Assembly (NCBI GenBank): GCA_038078735.1
Contig: JBBTTI010000001.1
Location: forward strand, 20,830 to 84,829
Length of the DNA: 64,000 bases
Direction: 5' to 3'
Origin: Patescibacteria group bacterium
Lineage (GTDB): Bacteria; Patescibacteriota; Minisyncoccia; Minisyncoccales; CAZWNE01
The translations under genes were made by a program, and so were the position numbers. Each line of letters begins with the position of its first letter. Positions within the stretch are counted from its first letter, which is position 1. The notes under the pieces were generated by a model. That model ran no database searches, was not told the origin of the DNA, and saw only the letters and a list, made by a program, of their open reading frames with translations. Positions 11,052 through 55,590 of the stretch are shown here, piece after piece.

Positions 11052-11381
11052 ATGTTTTATGTATATTTATTAAAAAGCATAAAAGACGAGAGTTTTTATA
11101 TAGGACAAACGGACGATATTAAGAAGAGACTTCAGAGACATAACAGCGGATTTGTCCAGACGACTAAAAATAGAGTGCCATGGATAGTGTTGGGGTATGA
11201 ACAATATGATACGCGGGAAAAAGCAAGATGGCGCGAATATGAGCTGAAACATAATTATTTAAAAAAGAAAAAATTTATCGAAAGATTTTGTCCCCATAGC
11301 TTAATGGATAAAGTAGCGGCCTCCGAAGCCGCGGATCGAGGTTCGACTCCCCGTGGGGGCATAATTATTATATGCAATTAA
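11052..11381 (+). CDS. GIY-YIG nuclease superfamily protein (COG2827/UPF0213-like)
   Basis: MFYVYLLKS...FYIGQTDDIKKRLQRHNSG...REYELK. The track ORF starts earlier (10890), but that part is the tRNA-like/GC-rich module. The frame has no stop until 11381, so it reads through tRNA-Arg. Confidence 0.75.
   Translation: MFYVYLLKSIKDESFYIGQTDDIKKRLQRHNSGFVQTTKNRVPWIVLGYEQYDTREKARWREYELKHNYLKKKKFIERFCPHSLMDKVAASEAADRGSTPRGGIIIICN
11290..11361 (+). tRNA. tRNA-Arg (anticodon CCG), 72 nt, CCA not encoded
   Basis: Manual cloverleaf: GTCCCCA/TGGGGGC acceptor (one G-U), D-arm GCTT-AATGGATA-AAGT, anticodon arm GCGGC-CTCCGAA-GCCGC, T-arm CGAGG-TTCGACT-CCCCG (one A-C mismatch). Confidence 0.8.
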
Positions 11382-27061: not shown

Positions 27062-27067
27062 CAAGTG

Positions 27068-27420
27068 TGGAGGTGGCGAGTGTGAGCTCGCATCCAAGAA
27101 TTATTCTAAAGATAGTTCTACAAATGTATCTCATTTGCTTTAAGCAAGAAGTTTAAAATGAGAAAAATCTTCCTACTTTGAGTTCTTTGATTGTTCAATA
27201 GTTTTTCTAAACCCGCTGAAAAGTTATCTATCTCGCTGATATAACACCCCCTATAGCACCTAGCGAGAATCCGAGAAGGGGATGCCGCCTTAAGCTAAAG
27301 CTAAAGCGGGTTGTTTGTTGAATAGATTAGCATTTATTCTAGCTTCTCAAAGTTTTATGAGATTTGAGAAAACTCAAATTGCCTATCTTTATCAAATTCC
27401 CGTCGAAGCAATTCACCCCC
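27068..27420 (-). ncRNA. ssrA: tmRNA (ssrA), ~353 nt, CCA not encoded
   Basis: 5' GGGGGTGAATTGCTTCGACGGGAATTTG. Tag frame GCT AAT CTA TTC AAC AAA CAA CCC GCT TTA GCT TTA GCT TAA (ANLFNKQPALALA*). 3' T-arm-like GCGAG..CTCGC, then CACCTCC-A pairing with the 5' end, including G3-U. Confidence 0.85.
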
Positions 27421-27868
27421 TTTTTAACTCTCTGGCTATCTCTCTGTCCAGTTCCCGTTTACTGATCTTTTCCCTTTTGTCATATTTCTTTTTTCCCTTA
27501 GCTACCCCGAATTCCAGCTTTATCTTTCCGTCGTTAGTATATACCTTCAGGGGTATTAAAGTCAAGCCTGACTGCTTGGATTTGCCGATTAAATAAAGGA
27601 TTTCTTTTTTTCTCAAAAGCAGTTTTCTTGAACGCTGGGGTTCGTAATCGCCGGGCATATTTTTCGGCTGATAAGGAGGAATATTGGCGCCAACCAGAAA
27701 AGCTTCGCTGTTTTTATCAATAACAACATACGAACCGGCCAAATTAACTCGGTTCATTCTGATTGATTTGACTTCTTGGCCAATCAAAGACATCCCGGCT
27801 TCAAATTTCTCCAGGATTTCATAGTTAAACCCCGCTTTTCTATTCTCGGCAAAGATTTTTATCATCAC
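27413..27868 (-). CDS. smpB: SsrA-binding protein
   Basis: NRKAGFNYEILEKFEAGMSLIGQEVKS...RSRKLLLRKKE. Confidence 0.95.
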   Translation of the reverse strand: MMIKIFAENRKAGFNYEILEKFEAGMSLIGQEVKSIRMNRVNLAGSYVVIDKNSEAFLVGANIPPYQPKNMPGDYEPQRSRKLLLRKKEILYLIGKSKQSGLTLIPLKVYTNDGKIKLEFGVAKGKKKYDKREKISKRELDREIARELKRG

Positions 27869-28550: not shown

Positions 28551-28593
28551 TAACTATTTTTTAATCACTTAGAAACGGAGTTTCTAAGTGTAT

Positions 28594-28614
28594 GTTGGAC
28601 ATTCAACGTCTAAC
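28594..28614. repeat. Degenerate REP-like palindrome GTTGGACATTCAACGTCTAAC
   Basis: Related to the GTTAGACG..CGTCTAAC family (8191, 8921, 38606). Confidence 0.5.
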
Positions 28615-28625
28615 AATAAACATAT

Positions 28626-28877
28626 TTATTTATAAACTTCTTTTCTGTGGCCAATTTTAAAGAAAATTGTTTCTCCTTCTCTAAAATAAAAAAATACTCG
28701 ATATCGCCGAGTAATCCTGAAAGAAAAAGAACCAGGCAGTTCTTTTATTCTTTTCGTATGTAATCTTGCGTCAAACCAGTTTACGATAAAAATTTTCTCT
28801 TGTTTTTTAAATAATTTTTTAATCTCTTTCGGCAAATCATCAAGGTCTTTTAAAAAATCTTTGGTATATATAATCAT
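28626..28877 (-). CDS. RelE/ParE-family type II toxin
   Basis: ...SFSFRITRRYRVFFYFREGETIFFKIGHRKEVY, the typical RelE C-terminal pattern. Confidence 0.75.
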   Translation of the reverse strand: MIIYTKDFLKDLDDLPKEIKKLFKKQEKIFIVNWFDARLHTKRIKELPGSFSFRITRRYRVFFYFREGETIFFKIGHRKEVYK

Positions 28878-29065
28878 TATTTTGGCGGATATTTTTGTAG
28901 GGCCATTAGGTGAGCTTTTTTAATTTGACCTCCGTTTTTATATTCTTTTATACTTTCTTCGGGAATAAAAACTAAAAACTTCTGAAGTTGATTTCGCATT
29001 AATTGTACTTCTTGAAGAATTTGGTCTAGTTTTAATTTTCCGTTTTGGGAAATAGTGTTAGCCAT
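28877..29065 (-). CDS. Putative cognate antitoxin
   Basis: 62-aa ORF overlapping the toxin start by 1 nt. Confidence 0.5.
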   Translation of the reverse strand: MANTISQNGKLKLDQILQEVQLMRNQLQKFLVFIPEESIKEYKNGGQIKKAHLMALQKYPPK

Positions 29066-49941: not shown

Positions 49942-51543
49942 ATGGAGAAAACAATTTTAATTGGTGGAAAAGCGGGACAGGGTACGGCGGTTACTTCACA
50001 TTTAATTGCGAAGATTTTTTGCCATTTAGGCTATTATGTTTTTAATTACCGCGATTATCCATCTTTAATTACCGGCGGCCACAATTTTAACGTTATAAGT
50101 ATTTCCGATAAACCTATTTCTTCCCATAAAGATAAGTTTGATATTATCTTGGCTTTAGACCAAAAGACTATTGATCTTCATAAGAAAAATTTAAACAAAG
50201 GAGGAATAATTTTTGACGGTAAAGGTTTAAAACCGATTTTTGGCAATAATGTTTTGATCGGCAAGCTTTTTAAATATTTTGGCGTTGATAAAAGTCCTAT
50301 ATTTAAGGCTTTTGAGGAAGAATTCAAGGAAAAAGCTGAAATGGCTAAAACAGCGATAGAGGAAGGATATAATTCAATTGAAATTAAAGAGAAATTAGTG
50401 AAAAACGGCAAAGAAAAATACTTACTTTCTGGTAATGAGGGATTATCTTTGGGAGCGATTGCCGCAGGAATGGATATTTACATTGCTTATCCAATGACTC
50501 CGGCTACTTCCATTTTGAGTTTTTTGGCTAAAAGGCAGCTAGAGCAGAACATTTTAGTTTTGCAATTGGAAAACGAAATCGCTGTTGTTGACGCAGCTAT
50601 CGGCGCTTCTTTTGTCGGGGCGAAAACAATGGTGGGCACTTCCGGCGGCGGCTTCGCTTTAATGACCGAATCTTTAAGCTTAGCCGGCATGGTGGAATTG
50701 CCCTTGGTGATTTTCTTAGGTCAGAGGACTGCTCCCTCAACCGGAGTTGCCACCTATACTGGCCAAGGTGATTTGAAGTTTGCCTTAAATCCCGGCCAGG
50801 GCGAATTTCCCAGAGTAGTTGTCGCTCCGGGAGACGCCAAAGAAGCTATTATTAGAACCCAGGAATCTTTTTATTTGTCTTCAAAATATCTGGCGCCAAT
50901 AATTATATTAGGAGACAAGCATTTAAGCGAATCAAGCTATAGTTTTGACAATATAGCTAAATCATCCATAAGTAATTCCAGATTTATTTTAGATAAAATT
51001 CCTTTGAATTATAAAAGCTATCAAATCACAAAAACCGGCGTGTCGCCGCGATTGGTTCCGGGTCAAGGGCCGGTGGTTCGCGCCAATAGTTATGAGCACA
51101 CTGATTTTGGCAATACCACAGAAAATGCGGAATGGATAATAAAAATGAACGATAAGCGTCAGAGAAAACAGGAGTCTATTGCTAAAGAAACTAAAAAATT
51201 AAATCCCGTTAGCATCTACGGAAAAGGACGTAATTTAATTATTGGCTGGGGATCAACTAAAGGCGCTATTATTGATGCTTTGCCGAAATTAAAAAATTTC
51301 CGATTCCTGCAGATTTCTTATTTAATGCCTTTTCCGAAAGAAGAGGTTTTGAAAGAAATTAAGAAGTCCCTGCCTGCCGGCAGGCAGGCAAAAAAGATTA
51401 TTTTAGTAGAAAATAATTCCACCGGATTGCTTGGAGATGTTATCGCCGAACAAACAGGATTTATTATTAAAAATAAAATTTTAAGATACGACGCCAGACC
51501 ATTTACTGCGGAATACTTAATTAACGAAATCCATGGAAAATAA
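49942..51543 (+). CDS. 2-oxoacid:ferredoxin oxidoreductase, fused gamma-alpha subunit
   Basis: GGKAGQGTAV (gamma) then GNEGLSLGAIAAGMDIYIAYPMTPATSIL (alpha). The track start at 49822 overlaps the previous gene; MEKTILIGG is preferred. Confidence 0.8.
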   Translation: MEKTILIGGKAGQGTAVTSHLIAKIFCHLGYYVFNYRDYPSLITGGHNFNVISISDKPISSHKDKFDIILALDQKTIDLHKKNLNKGGIIFDGKGLKPIFGNNVLIGKLFKYFGVDKSPIFKAFEEEFKEKAEMAKTAIEEGYNSIEIKEKLVKNGKEKYLLSGNEGLSLGAIAAGMDIYIAYPMTPATSILSFLAKRQLEQNILVLQLENEIAVVDAAIGASFVGAKTMVGTSGGGFALMTESLSLAGMVELPLVIFLGQRTAPSTGVATYTGQGDLKFALNPGQGEFPRVVVAPGDAKEAIIRTQESFYLSSKYLAPIIILGDKHLSESSYSFDNIAKSSISNSRFILDKIPLNYKSYQITKTGVSPRLVPGQGPVVRANSYEHTDFGNTTENAEWIIKMNDKRQRKQESIAKETKKLNPVSIYGKGRNLIIGWGSTKGAIIDALPKLKNFRFLQISYLMPFPKEEVLKEIKKSLPAGRQAKKIILVENNSTGLLGDVIAEQTGFIIKNKILRYDARPFTAEYLINEIHGK

Positions 51544-52366
51544 AGATTTAAATACAAAAGAAGAGAATACTTGGTGCCCGGGGTGTCCGGATTTCAGTAT
51601 TTTGGAGTCAACCAAAAGGGCTTTAGTTGAATTGGTCAATGAAAATAAAATTGAAATCAAAAATACGGCTATCGTCACCGGCATCGGTTGCCATGCTAAA
51701 ATTTTTGACTATTTAGAGTTGAATAGTTTTTCCGGATTGCATGGCCGGGTCTTGCCGATTGCTTTGGGGATGAAAATCGGAAATCCAAAATTAACGGTTA
51801 TCGGCTTTGGCGGCGATGGCGACACTTACTCTGAAGGTATGGAGCATTTTATCCATAATTGCCGATATAACTCGGATATGACGATGATTGTTAATAATAA
51901 TCAGGTTTTTGCCTTAACTGTTGGCCAACCCACGCCAACATCGGAAAAGGGCCCTTTAAAGCCCTTAAACCCCATTGCCCTAGCTTTAACGGCCGGAGCC
52001 AGTTTTGTCGCCCGAGGATCAGCTTTAGATATAGAACATTTGAAAAATCTTATTAAGGAAGCGATTTTGCATAAAGGATTTTCTTTTATTGATATTTTAC
52101 AGCCTTGTATTGTTTTCCATAATACTGTTCCTTATTTCCAGAAAAATATTTATAAGTTAGACCCGATTCGCGATCTGACTAATTCAAAAGAGGCCATGGA
52201 GAGAGCCGAGGAATGGGATTATTGTTTTGATAGGGATCAAAAAATTCCCATCGGCATTTTTTATAAAAAAGAAAGGCCGGTTTTTGAAGAACAACTGCCG
52301 CACAATACTTGGTATACTCAAAAAAGAAAAACCGACTGGCAAGACCTTACCAAAGATTTTCACTAA
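51533..52366 (+). CDS. 2-oxoacid:ferredoxin oxidoreductase beta subunit (TPP-binding)
   Basis: WCPGCPDFSIL, GIGCH, GFGGDGDTYSEG. Confidence 0.85.
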   Translation: MENKDLNTKEENTWCPGCPDFSILESTKRALVELVNENKIEIKNTAIVTGIGCHAKIFDYLELNSFSGLHGRVLPIALGMKIGNPKLTVIGFGGDGDTYSEGMEHFIHNCRYNSDMTMIVNNNQVFALTVGQPTPTSEKGPLKPLNPIALALTAGASFVARGSALDIEHLKNLIKEAILHKGFSFIDILQPCIVFHNTVPYFQKNIYKLDPIRDLTNSKEAMERAEEWDYCFDRDQKIPIGIFYKKERPVFEEQLPHNTWYTQKRKTDWQDLTKDFH

Positions 52367-52405
52367 AAAAGTGGGGCCTCTGACCTCCACTTTTGTTTAA
52401 TAAAA

Positions 52406-52433
52406 TTGACAATTAAAGAATTAACGATATACT
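52406..52433 (+). promoter_or_regulatory. Sigma70-like promoter (TTGACA-16 nt-TATACT)
   Basis: Directly upstream of RBS AGGAGGA and the 52452 ORF. Confidence 0.55.
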
Positions 52434-52451
52434 GTTCATTAGGAGGATAAA

Positions 52452-52757
52452 ATGTCATTAATAGATCTTTTTGAAAATAGACTAAAGCTGGGACAAGAAT
52501 TGAGTGAGGAGGAGCTTGAGGAAATTGATCGAATGAGAGCTACAGAGACAGAGAATAAAGAGCTGTCTGCCCGCCTTGTAGACATAATAGGATTGAACTT
52601 AAGAGTTCGTGTTTCTAATTACATCGAGGCCTTGAAGGAAACATATGACAAAATAGAGCTAGAATATCAGAATCCTAATACTTCGGACAAGCGTAAAGTT
52701 GAGTTAGCCGTGCTGGGTCAGAAGGTTTCCGAGGGTTTAAACATATTAACACGATGA
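52452..52757 (+). CDS. Hypothetical acidic coiled-coil-like protein (101 aa)
   Basis: Consensus promoter, strong RBS and terminator AGCAGGG..CCCTGCT+T-run (52782-52820). Confidence 0.5.
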   Translation: MSLIDLFENRLKLGQELSEEELEEIDRMRATETENKELSARLVDIIGLNLRVRVSNYIEALKETYDKIELEYQNPNTSDKRKVELAVLGQKVSEGLNILTR

Positions 52758-52840
52758 TATTCTGTCGGGAATCGGCGTAATAGCAGGGGGAAAAATTATC
52801 TCGCCCTGCTTTTTTATTTTTAGGTAAATTGTTAAACATT

Positions 52841-52861
52841 GTTAAACATTCAATGTCTAAC
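52841..52861. repeat. REP-like palindrome GTTAAACATTCAATGTCTAAC (preceded by a duplicated GTTAAACATT)
   Basis: AT-shifted variant of the GTTAGACG..CGTCTAAC family; partner copy at 53690-53710. Confidence 0.6.
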
Positions 52862-52989
52862 AACTCTATAGAATAGCAGAATAATATAATAGTAATATCA
52901 TTGCTATAGCATAGATATTACTATTGCATGTGGAGTTTTAAATTAGCTGATTTTTAGTAAAGGGAGCCGATCTGTGATATAAACAATAT

Positions 52990-53274
52990 ATGAATATTAA
53001 AGATATAAAAAATAAAATCAATCCGATTTTAAAACGCAATGATGTCAAAAGGGCGGCGGTTTTTGGTTCAGCCGCAAGGGGTGAAGCGAAAAAAAATAGC
53101 GACGTTGATATTCTTATAAAATTTAAAAAAGATAACAAAACATTGTTTGATTTAGTTGGATTAAAAATTGAATTAGAAGAAAAACTTAATAAAAAGGTAG
53201 ATGTTTTAACTTACGATTCTATCCATCCGCTTTTAAGAAATATTATTTTAAAAGAGCAAAAAATAATTTTATGA
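52990..53274 (+). CDS. MNT-type nucleotidyltransferase antitoxin
   Basis: AAVFGSAARGEAKKNSDVDILI (GSxxRGx..DxD). Confidence 0.85.
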   Translation: MNIKDIKNKINPILKRNDVKRAAVFGSAARGEAKKNSDVDILIKFKKDNKTLFDLVGLKIELEEKLNKKVDVLTYDSIHPLLRNIILKEQKIIL

Positions 53275-53612
53275 GGAAAAATATAAGAATATTTCTCCTT
53301 CATATCTTAGAAAGCATAGAAAGGATAGAAAGTTTTACAGCGGGGATATCTCGCGAGAAGTTTTTAGAGTCGGAAATGATTCAAGACGCAGTTATTAGAA
53401 GATTAGGAATTATTGGAGAAGCAGTTAAAAATTTACCCCAAAGTTTTAAAAATAATCACCAGGAAATTGAATGGAAAAAAATTGCGGGGACAAGAGATAT
53501 TATTATTCATGAATATTTCGGAGTAGATTTAAAGCTTACTTATAAAATTATTGAAAAAGATATCCCAGAATTAAAAGAAAAAATATCAGAGCTATTAAGA
53601 AAAATTAGTTAA
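53271..53612 (+). CDS. HepT/DUF86 HEPN-domain toxin
   Basis: RDIIIHEYFGVD (Rx4-6H HEPN motif). 4-nt overlap with the MNT gene. Confidence 0.85.
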   Translation: MRKNIRIFLLHILESIERIESFTAGISREKFLESEMIQDAVIRRLGIIGEAVKNLPQSFKNNHQEIEWKKIAGTRDIIIHEYFGVDLKLTYKIIEKDIPELKEKISELLRKIS

Positions 53613-53618
53613 ATTAGT

Positions 53619-53674
53619 TAAACTCTTTCTATTTTGGCGCCGAGGAGGCGGAGTTTTTCGTCGAGTTTTTCATA
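53619..53674 (-). repeat. Duplicate of the last 56 nt of murA (encodes YEKLDEKLRLLGAKIERV*)
   Basis: 54/56 identity with 54332-54387; both differences are synonymous. Confidence 0.85.
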
Positions 53675-53689
53675 ATCTCGATCAAATAT

Positions 53690-53710
53690 GTTAAACATCC
53701 GATGTCTAAC
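53690..53710. repeat. REP-like palindrome GTTAAACATCCGATGTCTAAC
   Basis: Same family as 52841-52861. Confidence 0.6.
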
Positions 53711-53754
53711 ATGTAAAAGCTTGACTGGGGATAACTTTTTGCTATACTAAAAAT

Positions 53755-53846
53755 GTGCTTGTGGGGCGTCAGCCCTATTCGGCTAAATACATAAGCCGAA
53801 GGCAGGCACAACAAAAACACCGCTTTAAGGCGGTATTTTTGTTTTT
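53755..53846 (+). ncRNA. Candidate small RNA (~90 nt) between a consensus promoter and a bidirectional terminator
   Basis: TTGACT-16 nt-TATACT at 53721-53748. Nested hairpins GGGC/GCCC and TTCGGCT/AGCCGAA closed by GTGCTTG/CAGGCAC. Terminator ACCGC..GCGGT+T-run. Confidence 0.35.
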
Positions 53847-54324
53847 AATCTTCATCTGGACTTCCCTTCATCGTTGTGAAAAATTTCGTGTCGCGATATT
53901 GATTAGTTACCCAAGCGGGGACAATGCTCCAAAAATGCATCGCGCCATTATCGCCAATCTTTCTAATTATCACTTTAATTTTTCTTCCGTCAATTATGGC
54001 GATGATTCCCCAATAATTTACACTCAGGCTCTTTTTGATTCTTTTTTTATAGCTTTTTACGTCAAACTCTTTTATGGTTTCTTCGAATTCTTGATAAGTT
54101 GTAGAAATTTTTACTAATTTTATTGCTAATGGTAATAATTTGAATCTTAAAATTTGGGAGGATCTTTCCCTTTCAGAACGAGCATTTTTAAAAACGATAT
54201 GATTGAATCCTTCAGAAGTAAAATAAATTTTTTGATTAAAGGCGGGAGAAAAAACACTACCTGTCGAACTATAAAATTTCTGCGTATCCTCTTTTAATTT
54301 ACTGTAATTAGATAAATCATCCAT
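53845..54324 (-). CDS. Hypothetical protein (159 aa) carried on the insert at the murA 3' end
   Basis: Intact ORF; no motif I can name. Confidence 0.5.
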   Translation of the reverse strand: MDDLSNYSKLKEDTQKFYSSTGSVFSPAFNQKIYFTSEGFNHIVFKNARSERERSSQILRFKLLPLAIKLVKISTTYQEFEETIKEFDVKSYKKRIKKSLSVNYWGIIAIIDGRKIKVIIRKIGDNGAMHFWSIVPAWVTNQYRDTKFFTTMKGSPDED

Positions 54325-54330
54325 AATAAG

Positions 54331-55590
54331 CTAAACTCTTTCTATTTTGGCGCCGAGGAGGCGGAGTTTTTCATCGAGTTTTTCGTAGCCCCGCTCTATT
54401 TGGGAAACGTTGTCAATTTGAGTTTGGCCTTTGGCAATCAGACCGGCTAAAATAAGAGCCGCTCCCGACCGGATGTCGTTAGAATCTATTTTATTGCCGG
54501 TCAGCTCGGTTTTGCCGAAAATTAAAGCTCGGTGGGGGTCGGTAATTTCGATGTCGGCTCCCATTTTTCTTAATTCATGCAAATGCTGGAATCGATTTTC
54601 GTAAAGAGGATCGTGAATCAGGCTTTTCCCTTGAGCCTGAGTAAGCAGGACCGAAACTGCCGGCTGTAAGTCGGTTGGAAATCCGGGATAAGGAAGAACT
54701 TGAATTTTTGTGGGGAAGAATTCTTTTGCCGGTTTGATTAAAACTTCATTAGCGCCAATTTCAAAATTTACGCCGATTTCTTTCATTTCTCCCCAGAACA
54801 TTGTCAGATGGTCGGGATCAATATTTTTAATTTTTCCCGTTCCCCCTGTAATGGCAAAAGCGATAAAAAAAGTGCCAATTTCCAGCGGGTCGGGTGAAAT
54901 TTTAAATTCAGCCCCATTTAATTTCTTTCCGCCTTCAATTTCAATATTATGAGTGCCGATACCTTGAATATTAACTCCCATTTTTCTCAACATATTTCCC
55001 AAATCTTGGACTTGAGGTTCAGCGGCGGCAATTTCAATTCTAGTTTTGCCCTGGGCTTGGCTGGCCACCATCATAGAAATTTCCGTAGCCGTAACTGAGA
55101 ATTCTTTTAAAACAATATGTTTTCCTTCCAGAATTTCCGGCGCTTCAAAGCAGTAGAAGCCATCTTTTTCTTCCACTTTTACTCCAAAGTTTTGCAGAGC
55201 TTTCAGGTGGGTAGAGATTGGCCGTAATCCGATTTTATCTCCGCCGGGATGAGGAACTTTAAATTTTTTAAATCTGGTTATAAGAGAGCCTATCAGTAAA
55301 ACCGAAACTCTCATTTTTTCAAAAAGATCGCTTGGTATTTTTTCCGGATTGATATTTTTAGGATCAATTTTTACTTTTCTATCGTTCAGCCATTCAACTC
55401 CGGCACCCATTTGCTTCAAAATTTCAATTTGATCTAAAACGTCGGAAACTCTGGGTAAATTATCAATAATTGACGGCTCTTCGGAAAGTAAAACCGCCGC
55501 CAAACAGGCGCCGGCCGAGTTTTTATATCCGGAAATTTCCACTTCCCCGGAAAGTGGCACCCCGCCCTGAATGAGAAATTTAGATGCCAT
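54331..55590 (-). CDS. murA: UDP-N-acetylglucosamine 1-carboxyvinyltransferase
   Basis: MASKFLIQGG..LSGEVEISGYKNSA, HPGGDKIGLRPI, FPTDLQP. Confidence 0.95.
   Translation of the reverse strand: MASKFLIQGGVPLSGEVEISGYKNSAGACLAAVLLSEEPSIIDNLPRVSDVLDQIEILKQMGAGVEWLNDRKVKIDPKNINPEKIPSDLFEKMRVSVLLIGSLITRFKKFKVPHPGGDKIGLRPISTHLKALQNFGVKVEEKDGFYCFEAPEILEGKHIVLKEFSVTATEISMMVASQAQGKTRIEIAAAEPQVQDLGNMLRKMGVNIQGIGTHNIEIEGGKKLNGAEFKISPDPLEIGTFFIAFAITGGTGKIKNIDPDHLTMFWGEMKEIGVNFEIGANEVLIKPAKEFFPTKIQVLPYPGFPTDLQPAVSVLLTQAQGKSLIHDPLYENRFQHLHELRKMGADIEITDPHRALIFGKTELTGNKIDSNDIRSGAALILAGLIAKGQTQIDNVSQIERGYEKLDEKLRLLGAKIERV

Follow-up and report, generated by a model that had tools for sequence, protein, structure and literature searches.

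How does foreign DNA come to lie against the very end of a gene and leave that gene complete, and what does such DNA carry? The question is raised by a stretch of 64,000 nucleotides (nt) from a Patescibacteria group bacterium (contig JBBTTI010000001.1; hereafter, the window), in which the 3′ end of the murA gene is present twice. The original prediction, made from the letters of the window, described a 56-nt duplication of the murA 3′ end that brackets an insert of ~660 bp, containing a palindrome, a promoter with a candidate small RNA, and an open reading frame (ORF) of 159 amino acids (aa), here termed ORF159. On balance, a compact cassette probably inserted at this site with duplication of its target, and its cargo may be an RNA–protein conflict module. 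That cargo, ORF159 together with the small RNA, is an apparently undescribed and widespread protein–RNA module; no description of it was found in the literature.

The ancestral state of the site can be read from relatives. Eighty murA loci, 73–99% identical at the protein level, were taken from metagenomes, and the sequence after murA was inspected in each (L-numbers label the compared loci). The window gene matches the TIGR01072 equivalog at 484 bits (cut-off 393) over residues 4–418, as well as PF00275 (6e-78). Its nearest relatives share a simple gene order: cofD, murA, and then porB on the opposite strand. In L091 (86%), L092 (85%), and L093 (84%), the murA stop codon abuts or overlaps the convergent porB stop codon, with nothing between. 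The same empty junction is present in L100, L106, L131, L107, L148, and others; indeed, murA and porB lie tail to tail in many relatives whose murA is 76–86% identical. In the window, 1,965 nt separate the end of porB at 52366 from that of murA at 54331. Because the junction is empty in relatives, these 1,965 nt are an insertion in the lineage of the window. The comparison shows that porB and murA were ancestrally convergent with abutting stop codons, and that accessory DNA accumulated between them later. The original prediction had called for this comparison, and held that a duplicated arrangement in all relatives would speak against insertion. Instead, the many empty sites support reading the repeat as the footprint of an insertion after which murA still has its full 3′ end.

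The inserted interval comprises three self-contained cassettes: ORF101; the MntA-HepT pair; and the small RNA with ORF159. It contains no ORFs other than ORF101, MntA, HepT, and ORF159, and no further murA remnants were found between porB and MntA. The view of the insert as one unit of ~660 bp therefore holds in part: a 641-nt unit (53684–54324) does lie between the repeat copies, but it is one of three cassettes at the porB–murA junction.

The duplication itself is real. Its 56-nt core (53619–53674 and 54332–54387) is identical at 54 positions, differing at 2, and forms part of a longer direct repeat of 72 nt that is 89% identical. The self-match, with a BLAST E value of about 2e-20, is far beyond chance; the longest exact stretch is only about 40 nt. 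As predicted, both copies encode YEKLDEKLRLLGAKIERV-stop on the minus strand, and only the right copy is joined to murA, where it ends the 419-aa MurA ORF. The left copy has no such attachment. Beyond the stop codon of murA, the repeat continues outward as AATTAGTTAAAC in the displaced copy and AATAAGCTAAAC in the attached copy. The displaced stretch includes the final HepT codons, ATT AGT TAA, and in this arrangement the HepT and murA stop codons would overlap convergently. Such overlapping convergent stop codons are typical of these compact genomes.

Two further inferences follow from comparison of the copies. First, because the duplicated target spanned an already existing HepT-murA junction, the sequence favours the small RNA and ORF159 unit as the youngest cassette, inserted into the murA end; MntA-HepT is the older. 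Second, both copies carry ...CTCCGCCTCCTCGGCGCC... (LRLLGA), whereas the sister strain L090 and all more distant relatives have ...TTGCG(N)... (LRK/S/N-LGA). Because these lineage-specific substitutions are missing from L090 and the distant relatives, the copies derive from each other, rather than representing one resident copy and one foreign copy. Mismatches between the copies are concentrated in the innermost 12 nt. Moreover, 13 of the 71 murA mismatches between the window and L090 fall within the last 60 nt (elsewhere, about 2.9 per 60 nt). This suggests that the murA gene end travels with the cassette in strain-to-strain exchange, and that gene conversion keeps the repeat core similar.

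The unit thus lies within a duplicated target stretch of ~60–72 nt, which extended from the last ~20 murA codons into the last codons of the then-adjacent HepT. One copy keeps murA complete and supplies the ORF159 5′ leader; the other is left as an orphan next to HepT. A general model for the insertion can be proposed. The process would be neither end-specific nor site-specific, and would duplicate tens of bases of target; the core of the two copies would later be kept similar by gene conversion. Candidates include replication template switching, microhomology-mediated joining, and single-crossover integration of a circular copy that carries a short homologous patch. Only events leaving murA intact would survive selection. 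At about 53604–53621, at the joint of the HepT stop codon and the orphan murA end, a 9-nt tandem, ATTAGTTAA-ATTAGTTAA, is a microhomology at the cassette border.

The inserted module is by no means confined to this locus. The original prediction proposed searching for the 159-aa protein in other contexts, and it was found in at least 172 species-representative Patescibacteria genomes (one genome per species), in unrelated neighbourhoods. Homologues of ORF159 make up 619 clusters, nearly all of them exactly 159 aa and 72–90% identical, spread over several candidate phyla and drawn from Nealson-, Azam-, Komeili-, Lipton-, Staskawicz-, Nomura-, and Kaiserbacteria and other groups. Across the species-representative genomes ORF159 is 65–90% identical, and murA about 34%. 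Eighty of these loci were fetched for comparison. In none of them is murA the neighbour of ORF159; where murA lies within a few kb, it is 33–35% identical and ORF159 71–76%.

In these loci the module is a discrete block of about 620–860 nt, with no third conserved partner gene (no neighbour family occurs in more than 5 of the 80). Conservation ends at its two promoters. Within subclades (80–88% nucleotide identity), homology is lost 1–120 nt ahead of the ATG and 90–160 nt past the stop codon, where unrelated flanks begin. The inner borders of the module vary, lying 0–148 nt from the ATG and, on the RNA side, anywhere from within the promoter to about 160 nt upstream.

Direct repeats also flank the module at six or seven other independent loci. 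Their sequences are unrelated, and their lengths lie between 17 and 120 nt. The repeat-bounded unit of L041 coincides with its homology block to L045. In L040, the perfect repeat, together with a discordant GC content at third codon positions (GC3), points to recent transfer. Sister strains, too, differ in what they carry. Strain L090 (Hainich H43; flanks 95% identical in nucleotides, MurA 99% in amino acids) has, directly behind murA and at exactly the same position, a different gene of the ORF159 family (L090:3666–4215; 159 aa, 36% identical) plus a variant RNA. Its contig ends inside the RNA, and the far border of that module was not recovered, the closest proteins being on contigs of about 1 kb.

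The RNA component deserves description. The predicted structured transcript of ~90 nt is indeed a conserved RNA gene: the candidate 53752–53848 folds at −43.3 kcal/mol (z = −6.3), and a core of ~57 nt has 93–98% nucleotide identity across about 80 loci. In 79 of 80 loci the RNA lies immediately downstream of ORF159 and convergent with it. The predicted promoter, TTGACT-16-TATACT, is likewise present; its −35 and −10 boxes keep their position across loci, and the conserved region begins immediately before the −35 box. In the terminator stem, the sequence is free to vary, yet pairing is kept.

The RNA core (~53754–53811) forms a three-way junction of three helices: P1, in which GUGCUUGUG pairs with GGCAGGCAC; P2, GGGGC-GUCA-GCCCU; and P3, UUCGGCU and AGCYGAA separated by a variable loop. 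In the proposed structure 98.2% of cells are paired and 8 pairs show compensatory changes, compared with 35–51% paired in slid controls. The junction strands are 0–1 nt, almost no unpaired bases are conserved, and the P3 loop is the sole variable part of the structure. Loci of a second clade (the L090 paralogue, a second module in L060, L190, L193, and L196) also encode this three-way junction; in them P2 is closed by a GNRA loop, and P3 is longer and covaries. RNA and protein diverge together between the clades.

A covariance model built from 50 sequences finds a single copy in the window, at 92 bits, and one per module locus. It finds none in the 79 other murA loci (about 560 kb), and none away from ORF159 in about 1.3 Mb searched. 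Weak extra matches of 20–25 bits were noted at L049:801–863 and L076:4669–4747, which may be degenerate second RNA copies, and at window position 51367–51397, inside the POR gene, which is probably spurious. The RNA is not a member of any Rfam family: Rfam 15 gave no match at gathering thresholds, and at E values up to 10 the best matches on the RNA strand (19 and 18 bits, E = 0.2–3) were terminator look-alikes. ARAGORN identified neither tRNA nor transfer-messenger RNA (tmRNA) at the locus. Signal recognition particle RNA, 6S RNA, Y RNA, hammerhead, and riboswitch identities were considered and dropped: the conserved loops are missing, the junctions are too tight, and no model matches.

ORF159 lies on the minus strand between the repeat copies, as predicted. 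The window protein matches nothing in Pfam, PHROGs, NCBIfam, or PADLOC; a PDB sequence profile search gave no match, nor did any solved structure in the PDB match its modelled fold. A profile search of 1.84 billion representatives recovered 971 relatives at the 50%-identity level, almost all of 130–170 aa. Residues G39, H42, and R52 are invariant across 71–72 divergent members. AlphaFold, with a deep alignment, predicts an α+β fold (predicted local distance difference test, 91.5; predicted template modelling score, 0.84): an N-terminal helix, a hairpin, a long helix, and a long antiparallel sheet. The N-terminal extensions of longer family members look like mis-called start codons. An HUH (IS200-type) transposase was ruled out, there being no HUH motif and no Pfam match.

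A possible remote relationship shows at the family level. Pfam PF18798 (LPD3) is matched by 26 of 72 family members at E values up to 1; the best scores, 25.8–26.0 bits, lie below the gathering threshold of 27 and span the full profile (2–113 of 114). The window protein itself has no LPD3 match in the Pfam scan. Among viral folds, two polyvalent proteins of phages, of about 1,050 aa, match best (probability 1.0 and 0.95). LPD3 is an uncharacterised domain known only from polyvalent proteins of phages and conjugative elements (Iyer et al. 2017, PMC5512222). All 971 relatives of ORF159 are stand-alone proteins of about 130–220 aa rather than parts of large polyvalent proteins, and none were found in viral contigs. 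The LPD3 link gives context, not mechanism, since LPD3 has no known function.

Expression of ORF159 may differ between loci. At most of them (L002–L081), a promoter resembling TTGATT-17-TAAACT lies 8–15 nt upstream of the ATG and ends about 7–10 nt before it, which suggests a leaderless mRNA. In the window, ORF159 has no promoter of its own. Because the murA 3′ end replaces that promoter, ORF159 is probably cotranscribed with murA here.

What, then, does the module do? With its strong promoter and tight fold, the RNA would act as a protein-binding shape rather than by base pairing, and would most likely bind ORF159, an LPD3-like α+β protein with invariant His42 and Arg52. A role as an RNA-antitoxin/protein-toxin pair, or as another conflict module, would explain the spread, the compactness, and the toxin-antitoxin company. 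Four features point this way: the compact, self-contained architecture; the toxin-antitoxin and abortive-infection neighbours (MntA-HepT in the window; MNT-HEPN plus AbiEi/AbiEii in L190); the replacement of one paralogue by another between sister strains; and the LPD3 link. Assignment to toxin-antitoxin or other conflict systems (defence or addiction) is nonetheless tentative, and somewhat under an even chance. The broader proposal is a previously undescribed ribonucleoprotein system, ancient in Patescibacteria, that spreads as a mobile unit of ~0.65 kb, leaves long target duplications of varying length, and represents either a new class of RNA antitoxin and protein toxin or a new cellular ribonucleoprotein. 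This, too, seems possible rather than probable.

Several observations weigh against the explanation as a whole. Conservation within clade 1 is far above what toxin-antitoxin systems usually show. In ORF159, GC3 follows host-flank GC content (r = 0.70; range 0.14–0.83), implying that the gene has long been resident and is under strong purifying selection. Identical proteins keep the same context across ten or more samples, behaviour that does not fit an active transposon and that could fit a housekeeping ribonucleoprotein. Searches of ORF159 with PADLOC, PHROGs, NCBIfam, and the PDB brought up no recognisable nuclease or toxin motif. The layout is not that of type III systems, the RNA being a single unit convergent with the protein gene; nor is it that of type I systems, the 159-aa protein being soluble and α+β by model, and the overlap being limited to the terminator. 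In L053 (4001–5314), a single reading frame joins ORF159 residues 1–154 to the last ~280 aa of a serine recombinase, with no RNA gene nearby; this fusion is either a rearrangement or an assembly chimera. About 70 of the 80 loci show no flanking repeat, and the related repeats of L030, L044, and L052 have in common a hairpin-like sequence, which may be a dispersed element of the repetitive extragenic palindromic (REP) type. Finally, the mechanism of insertion is inferred.

It is chiefly the exceptional conservation that speaks for the strongest rival: that the module is a housekeeping ribonucleoprotein of Patescibacteria, its scattered positions reflecting poor synteny and occasional relocation. 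Its RNA is near-invariant, its protein is far more conserved than MurA and has adjusted its GC3 to host composition, and its gene is single-copy and positionally stable within species. Moreover, RNA and terminator variants group by lineage, and subclades broadly follow taxonomy. A housekeeping component, however, would hardly be missing from 79 of the 80 murA loci and apparently from most Patescibacteria species, nor would paralogues of 36% identity be expected to occupy one site in sister strains. The two-clade tandem in L060, the GC3 outliers and perfect flanking repeats that indicate recent transfer, the relation to LPD3, and the toxin-antitoxin and abortive-infection neighbours likewise argue against it, and it is judged unlikely, though it is the alternative to be taken most seriously. 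Taken together, the evidence is that the module is both a long-term single-copy resident, under very strong purifying selection, and mobile. The arrangement in L060 (1950–3317) is a clade-1 ORF159 and RNA, then a recombinase-tail remnant, and then a 28%-identical paralogue with a clade-2 RNA.

Convergent genes with a bidirectional terminator in common also raise another idea: that the RNA merely regulates ORF159 in cis, as an antisense RNA through the shared terminator or as a sensor that controls antisense read-through, and binds no protein. Convergent type I toxin-antitoxin pairs with a similar layout are known from Bacillus. In the module, however, it is the three-way junction that stays invariant, and this junction lies clear of ORF159, whereas the overlapping terminator varies; and junction strands of 0–1 nt offer no obvious ligand pocket. 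Cis regulation alone is distinctly less likely than a housekeeping role.

A different question is whether a recombinase placed the module at murA. Site-specific insertion in the integrase/att sense, as the original prediction had it, is not supported. Flanking direct repeats that restore the target are present, with the MurA C-terminus encoded in both. By contrast, neither tyrosine nor serine recombinases occur in or beside the element (52367–54330), and there is no common att core, the repeats of L011, L024, L037, L040, and L041 being unrelated. The interval likewise contains no Pfam transposase, conserved terminal sequences are absent, and the size range of the duplications is wide. Variable repeats and borders, the lack of conserved ends, and the lack of a recombinase in the insert together speak against both a transposase and an integrase working at an att site. 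An integron cassette finds no better support: the only repeated site is a 23-nt palindrome, and the interval scanned has no tyrosine recombinase. A template/variable repeat pair of a diversity-generating retroelement was ruled out, since mismatches are not adenine-specific and there is no reverse transcriptase.

The recombinase might of course have been lost. An element with an attP site mimicking murA could have been reduced to ORF159 and the RNA, leaving attL and attR behind like a cis-mobilizable element (CIME). Such a remnant would account for direct repeats that regenerate the 3′ end of a gene and for divergence from the sister strain concentrated in the repeated segment, and the module is often near a large serine recombinase (a full gene in L013, remnants in about 20 loci, a motif repeated five times in L025). 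Yet no recombinase or recombinase-tail homology was found in the inserted interval or nearby, and serine recombinases do not generate long repeats. Elsewhere the flanking repeats are unrelated, of 17–120 nt, with variable inner borders. The displaced copy is unlike the resident allele and shares the derived sequence of the attached copy. An integrase remnant is accordingly a rather improbable origin.

The order of arrival could instead be reversed, with ORF159 and the RNA already behind murA when MntA-HepT entered at a palindrome, bringing a murA fragment from a donor. The true borders would then be the palindrome copies at 52840 and 53689, which are 91% identical, lie 849 nt apart, and bracket MntA-HepT plus the murA remnant. 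A third palindrome copy adjoins another toxin-antitoxin pair, and the sister strain likewise has an ORF159-family module directly behind murA. This scheme requires, however, that the incoming cassette carry a fragment coincidentally 96% identical to the local gene end, and the outer repeat end holds the last HepT codons as overlapping stops, as expected of a duplicated HepT-murA junction. There is little chance that the order was reversed.

An assembly artefact, with the repeat collapsed or mis-joined, was a concern of the original prediction and can be given almost no weight: short-read metagenome assemblies can mis-join at repeats, but an independent European Nucleotide Archive contig from Hainich groundwater (L001, 12.6 kb, 99.98% identical) agrees and has both copies, the exact repeat is below read length, comparable structures are present in other genomes, and Logan contigs from six single runs that carry the identical HepT gene break off within the repeat, each of them 36 nt beyond the HepT stop codon, where a real two-copy sequence would branch the de Bruijn assembly graph and contigs are expected to break.

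Insertion of a compact cassette with target duplication thus remains the preferred explanation for the locus, whose features are collected below together with the flanking repeats of other loci.

Table. Features of the murA–porB region of the window, and direct repeats flanking the module elsewhere
Feature	Position or length	Strand	Description
Inserted interval, porB stop to murA stop	52367..54330	.	Empty in relatives
murA (UDP-N-acetylglucosamine 1-carboxyvinyltransferase), intact target	54331..55590	-	419-aa ORF; TIGR01072, PF00275
Right (attached) repeat copy	54325..54396	-	Last ~20 murA codons, stop codon, and 6 nt up to ORF159 ATG
Left (displaced) repeat copy, orphan murA 3′ end	53612..53683	-	Outer end extends into last HepT codons
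ORF159, LPD3-like	53845..54324	-	159 aa; starts 7 nt after murA stop
Small RNA gene	53755..53844	+	Convergent with ORF159; from fold, conservation, and covariance model
RNA promoter	53721..53748	+	Sigma-70-type, TTGACT-16-tgTATACT with TG extension
Bidirectional terminator shared by RNA and ORF159	53812-53844		Intrinsic terminator at 53819-53834
MntA-HepT toxin-antitoxin pair	MntA 52990-53274; HepT 53271-53612	+	Pfam PF01909/PF18765, PF01934
ORF101 cassette	52406..52815	+	Promoter 52406-52433, ORF 52452-52757, hairpin about 52771-52815
Palindrome copy a	52840..52862	.	91% identical to copy b; upstream of MntA-HepT
Palindrome copy b	53689..53711	.	TGTTAAACATCCGATGTCTAACA; between displaced repeat copy and RNA promoter
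Third palindrome copy	28593-28615		Adjoins RelE-like toxin-antitoxin pair at 28626-29065
L011 flanking repeat	50 nt		Contains last 14 codons and stop codon of upstream gene
L024 flanking repeat	83 nt		
L037 flanking repeat	17 nt		
L040 flanking repeat	55 nt		100% identity; GC3 0.70 vs flank GC 0.43
L041 flanking repeat	120 nt		99% identity; unit −112 to +162 relative to ORF
L030, L044, L052 flanking repeats	39-42 nt		Related to one another

The neighbouring cassettes are of familiar kinds in part. MntA and HepT match PF01909 (4e-18) and PF01934 (1e-30), and their genes overlap by 4 nt, as a type VII toxin-antitoxin pair; the NCBIfam MntA and HepT equivalogs score 49–56 bits, under the cut-off of 60. 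The pair is missing beside murA in the 79 relatives. Upstream of MntA, a palindrome with 19-nt arms and perfect spacing (52888–52925; AATAGTAATATCATTGCTA / TAGCATAGATATTACTATT) is possibly the operator of the pair. The ORF101 cassette has a near-consensus promoter, TTGACA-16-TATACT (11 of 12 positions), and ends in its own terminator-like hairpin; ORF101 matches no family.

The palindrome of the original prediction, TGTTRRACRTnnnAYGTYYAACA, occurs three times in the window, against 0.01 expected. It is thus present and repeated as described, but it lies outside the conserved cassette and, among the fetched loci, is limited to the lineage of the window and L094. Each copy adjoins a toxin-antitoxin cassette, either MntA-HepT or the RelE-like pair. 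The palindrome may be an element of the REP kind, a site of recombination, or an operator. A dif/Xer or attC site was ruled out, the spacer being 3–7 nt and the arms wrongly oriented. Elsewhere in the window are ordinary housekeeping genes: a tmRNA gene (27065–27420, minus strand; 96 bits), an adjoining 151-aa ORF that looks SmpB-like by eye (27413–27868, minus strand), and tRNA-Arg(CCG) at 11289–11362.

Large serine recombinases recur near the module in other genomes. A 559-aa recombinase gene (L013:2312–3991) ends 9 nt before ORF159, and another is associated with the module at L074:2272–3765 (minus strand). Remnants of ~90 nt from the C-terminal coding end of such a gene (LLRDLDDVRT...YIP) precede ORF159 in about 20 loci, roughly 60–120 nt upstream; some are also found downstream of the RNA. 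In L025 (3897–8297), a motif of ~35 nt, TTTGGCGCGGACTAGTGGACGATGTTAGAACTG, occurs five times on one strand and separates successive cassettes: ORF159 with its RNA; ORFs of 155 and 339 aa, ParB-like and ParA-like by eye; and others. Two motif copies carry a GC-rich insertion of 30 nt. Since the motif comes from a gene for a large serine recombinase, of which it forms the 3′ end, L025 looks like a cassette array.

Together, these results provide a concrete, testable entry point into a near-invariant, cassette-like mobile RNA–protein pair. Patescibacteria have tiny genomes with many unknown genes. Here, a protein family of about a thousand 50%-identity representatives without assigned function is coupled to an RNA without an Rfam family, itself a candidate new RNA family and among the most sequence-conserved elements in these loci. 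If the proposal is true, a three-way-junction RNA of ~60 nt, with rRNA-like conservation, has a dedicated protein of LPD3-like fold. Target duplications of 17–120 nt, some of which restore gene ends, are an uncommon insertion signature in bacteria. Moreover, the murA–porB junction, empty in relatives, has gathered three cassettes, and sister strains differ there in the family member they carry; this is strain-level variation in uncultured bacteria.

Several known systems invite comparison. Insertions that regenerate a gene end include phage 21 and e14 at icd, and genomic islands at tRNA and tmRNA genes. As in those cases, direct repeats of a 3′ end flank the insert, the gene is intact, and an orphan 3′ copy marks the far border. 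Unlike them, the window insert has no integrase and no constant core, its two copies share lineage substitutions, and repeat lengths in the family vary widely. Integron cassettes and pdif modules offer a second likeness: small cassettes, often toxin-antitoxin pairs, pile up at one spot and are swapped between strains, and in L025 a short repeat separates successive cassettes. However, no IntI- or Xer-type site was recognised, and the L025 repeat is the end of a serine recombinase gene. An attC site has at least ~57 nt, with R″, L″, L′, and R′ boxes, for which the 23-nt palindrome is too short.

For LPD3, the family aligns to the full profile near threshold and its viral fold matches are phage polyvalent proteins, whereas ORF159 is a domain alone, encoded on a bacterial chromosome and paired with an RNA, and all matches are sub-threshold. 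Such a remote link would be a first handle on LPD3, and would provide a functional context for the domain.

The closest analogues of the module as a whole are the type III toxin-antitoxin systems (ToxIN, CptIN, TenpIN) and the convergent type I pairs (txpA/RatA, bsrG/SR4). The module resembles them in layout but lacks their defining features: type III RNAs are tandem repeats upstream on the same strand, in place of a single convergent three-way-junction RNA; ORF159 is unrelated to ToxN/AbiQ-type toxins (no ToxN, AbiQ, CptN, or TenpN match in PADLOC, Pfam, or PHROGs) and is not a small membrane peptide; and the module is far more conserved than is usual. The likenesses are these: in each, a compact protein gene is joined to a strongly promoted gene for a small structured RNA, the two move as a pair and are found in variable contexts among toxin-antitoxin cassettes, and RNA and protein diverge in step.

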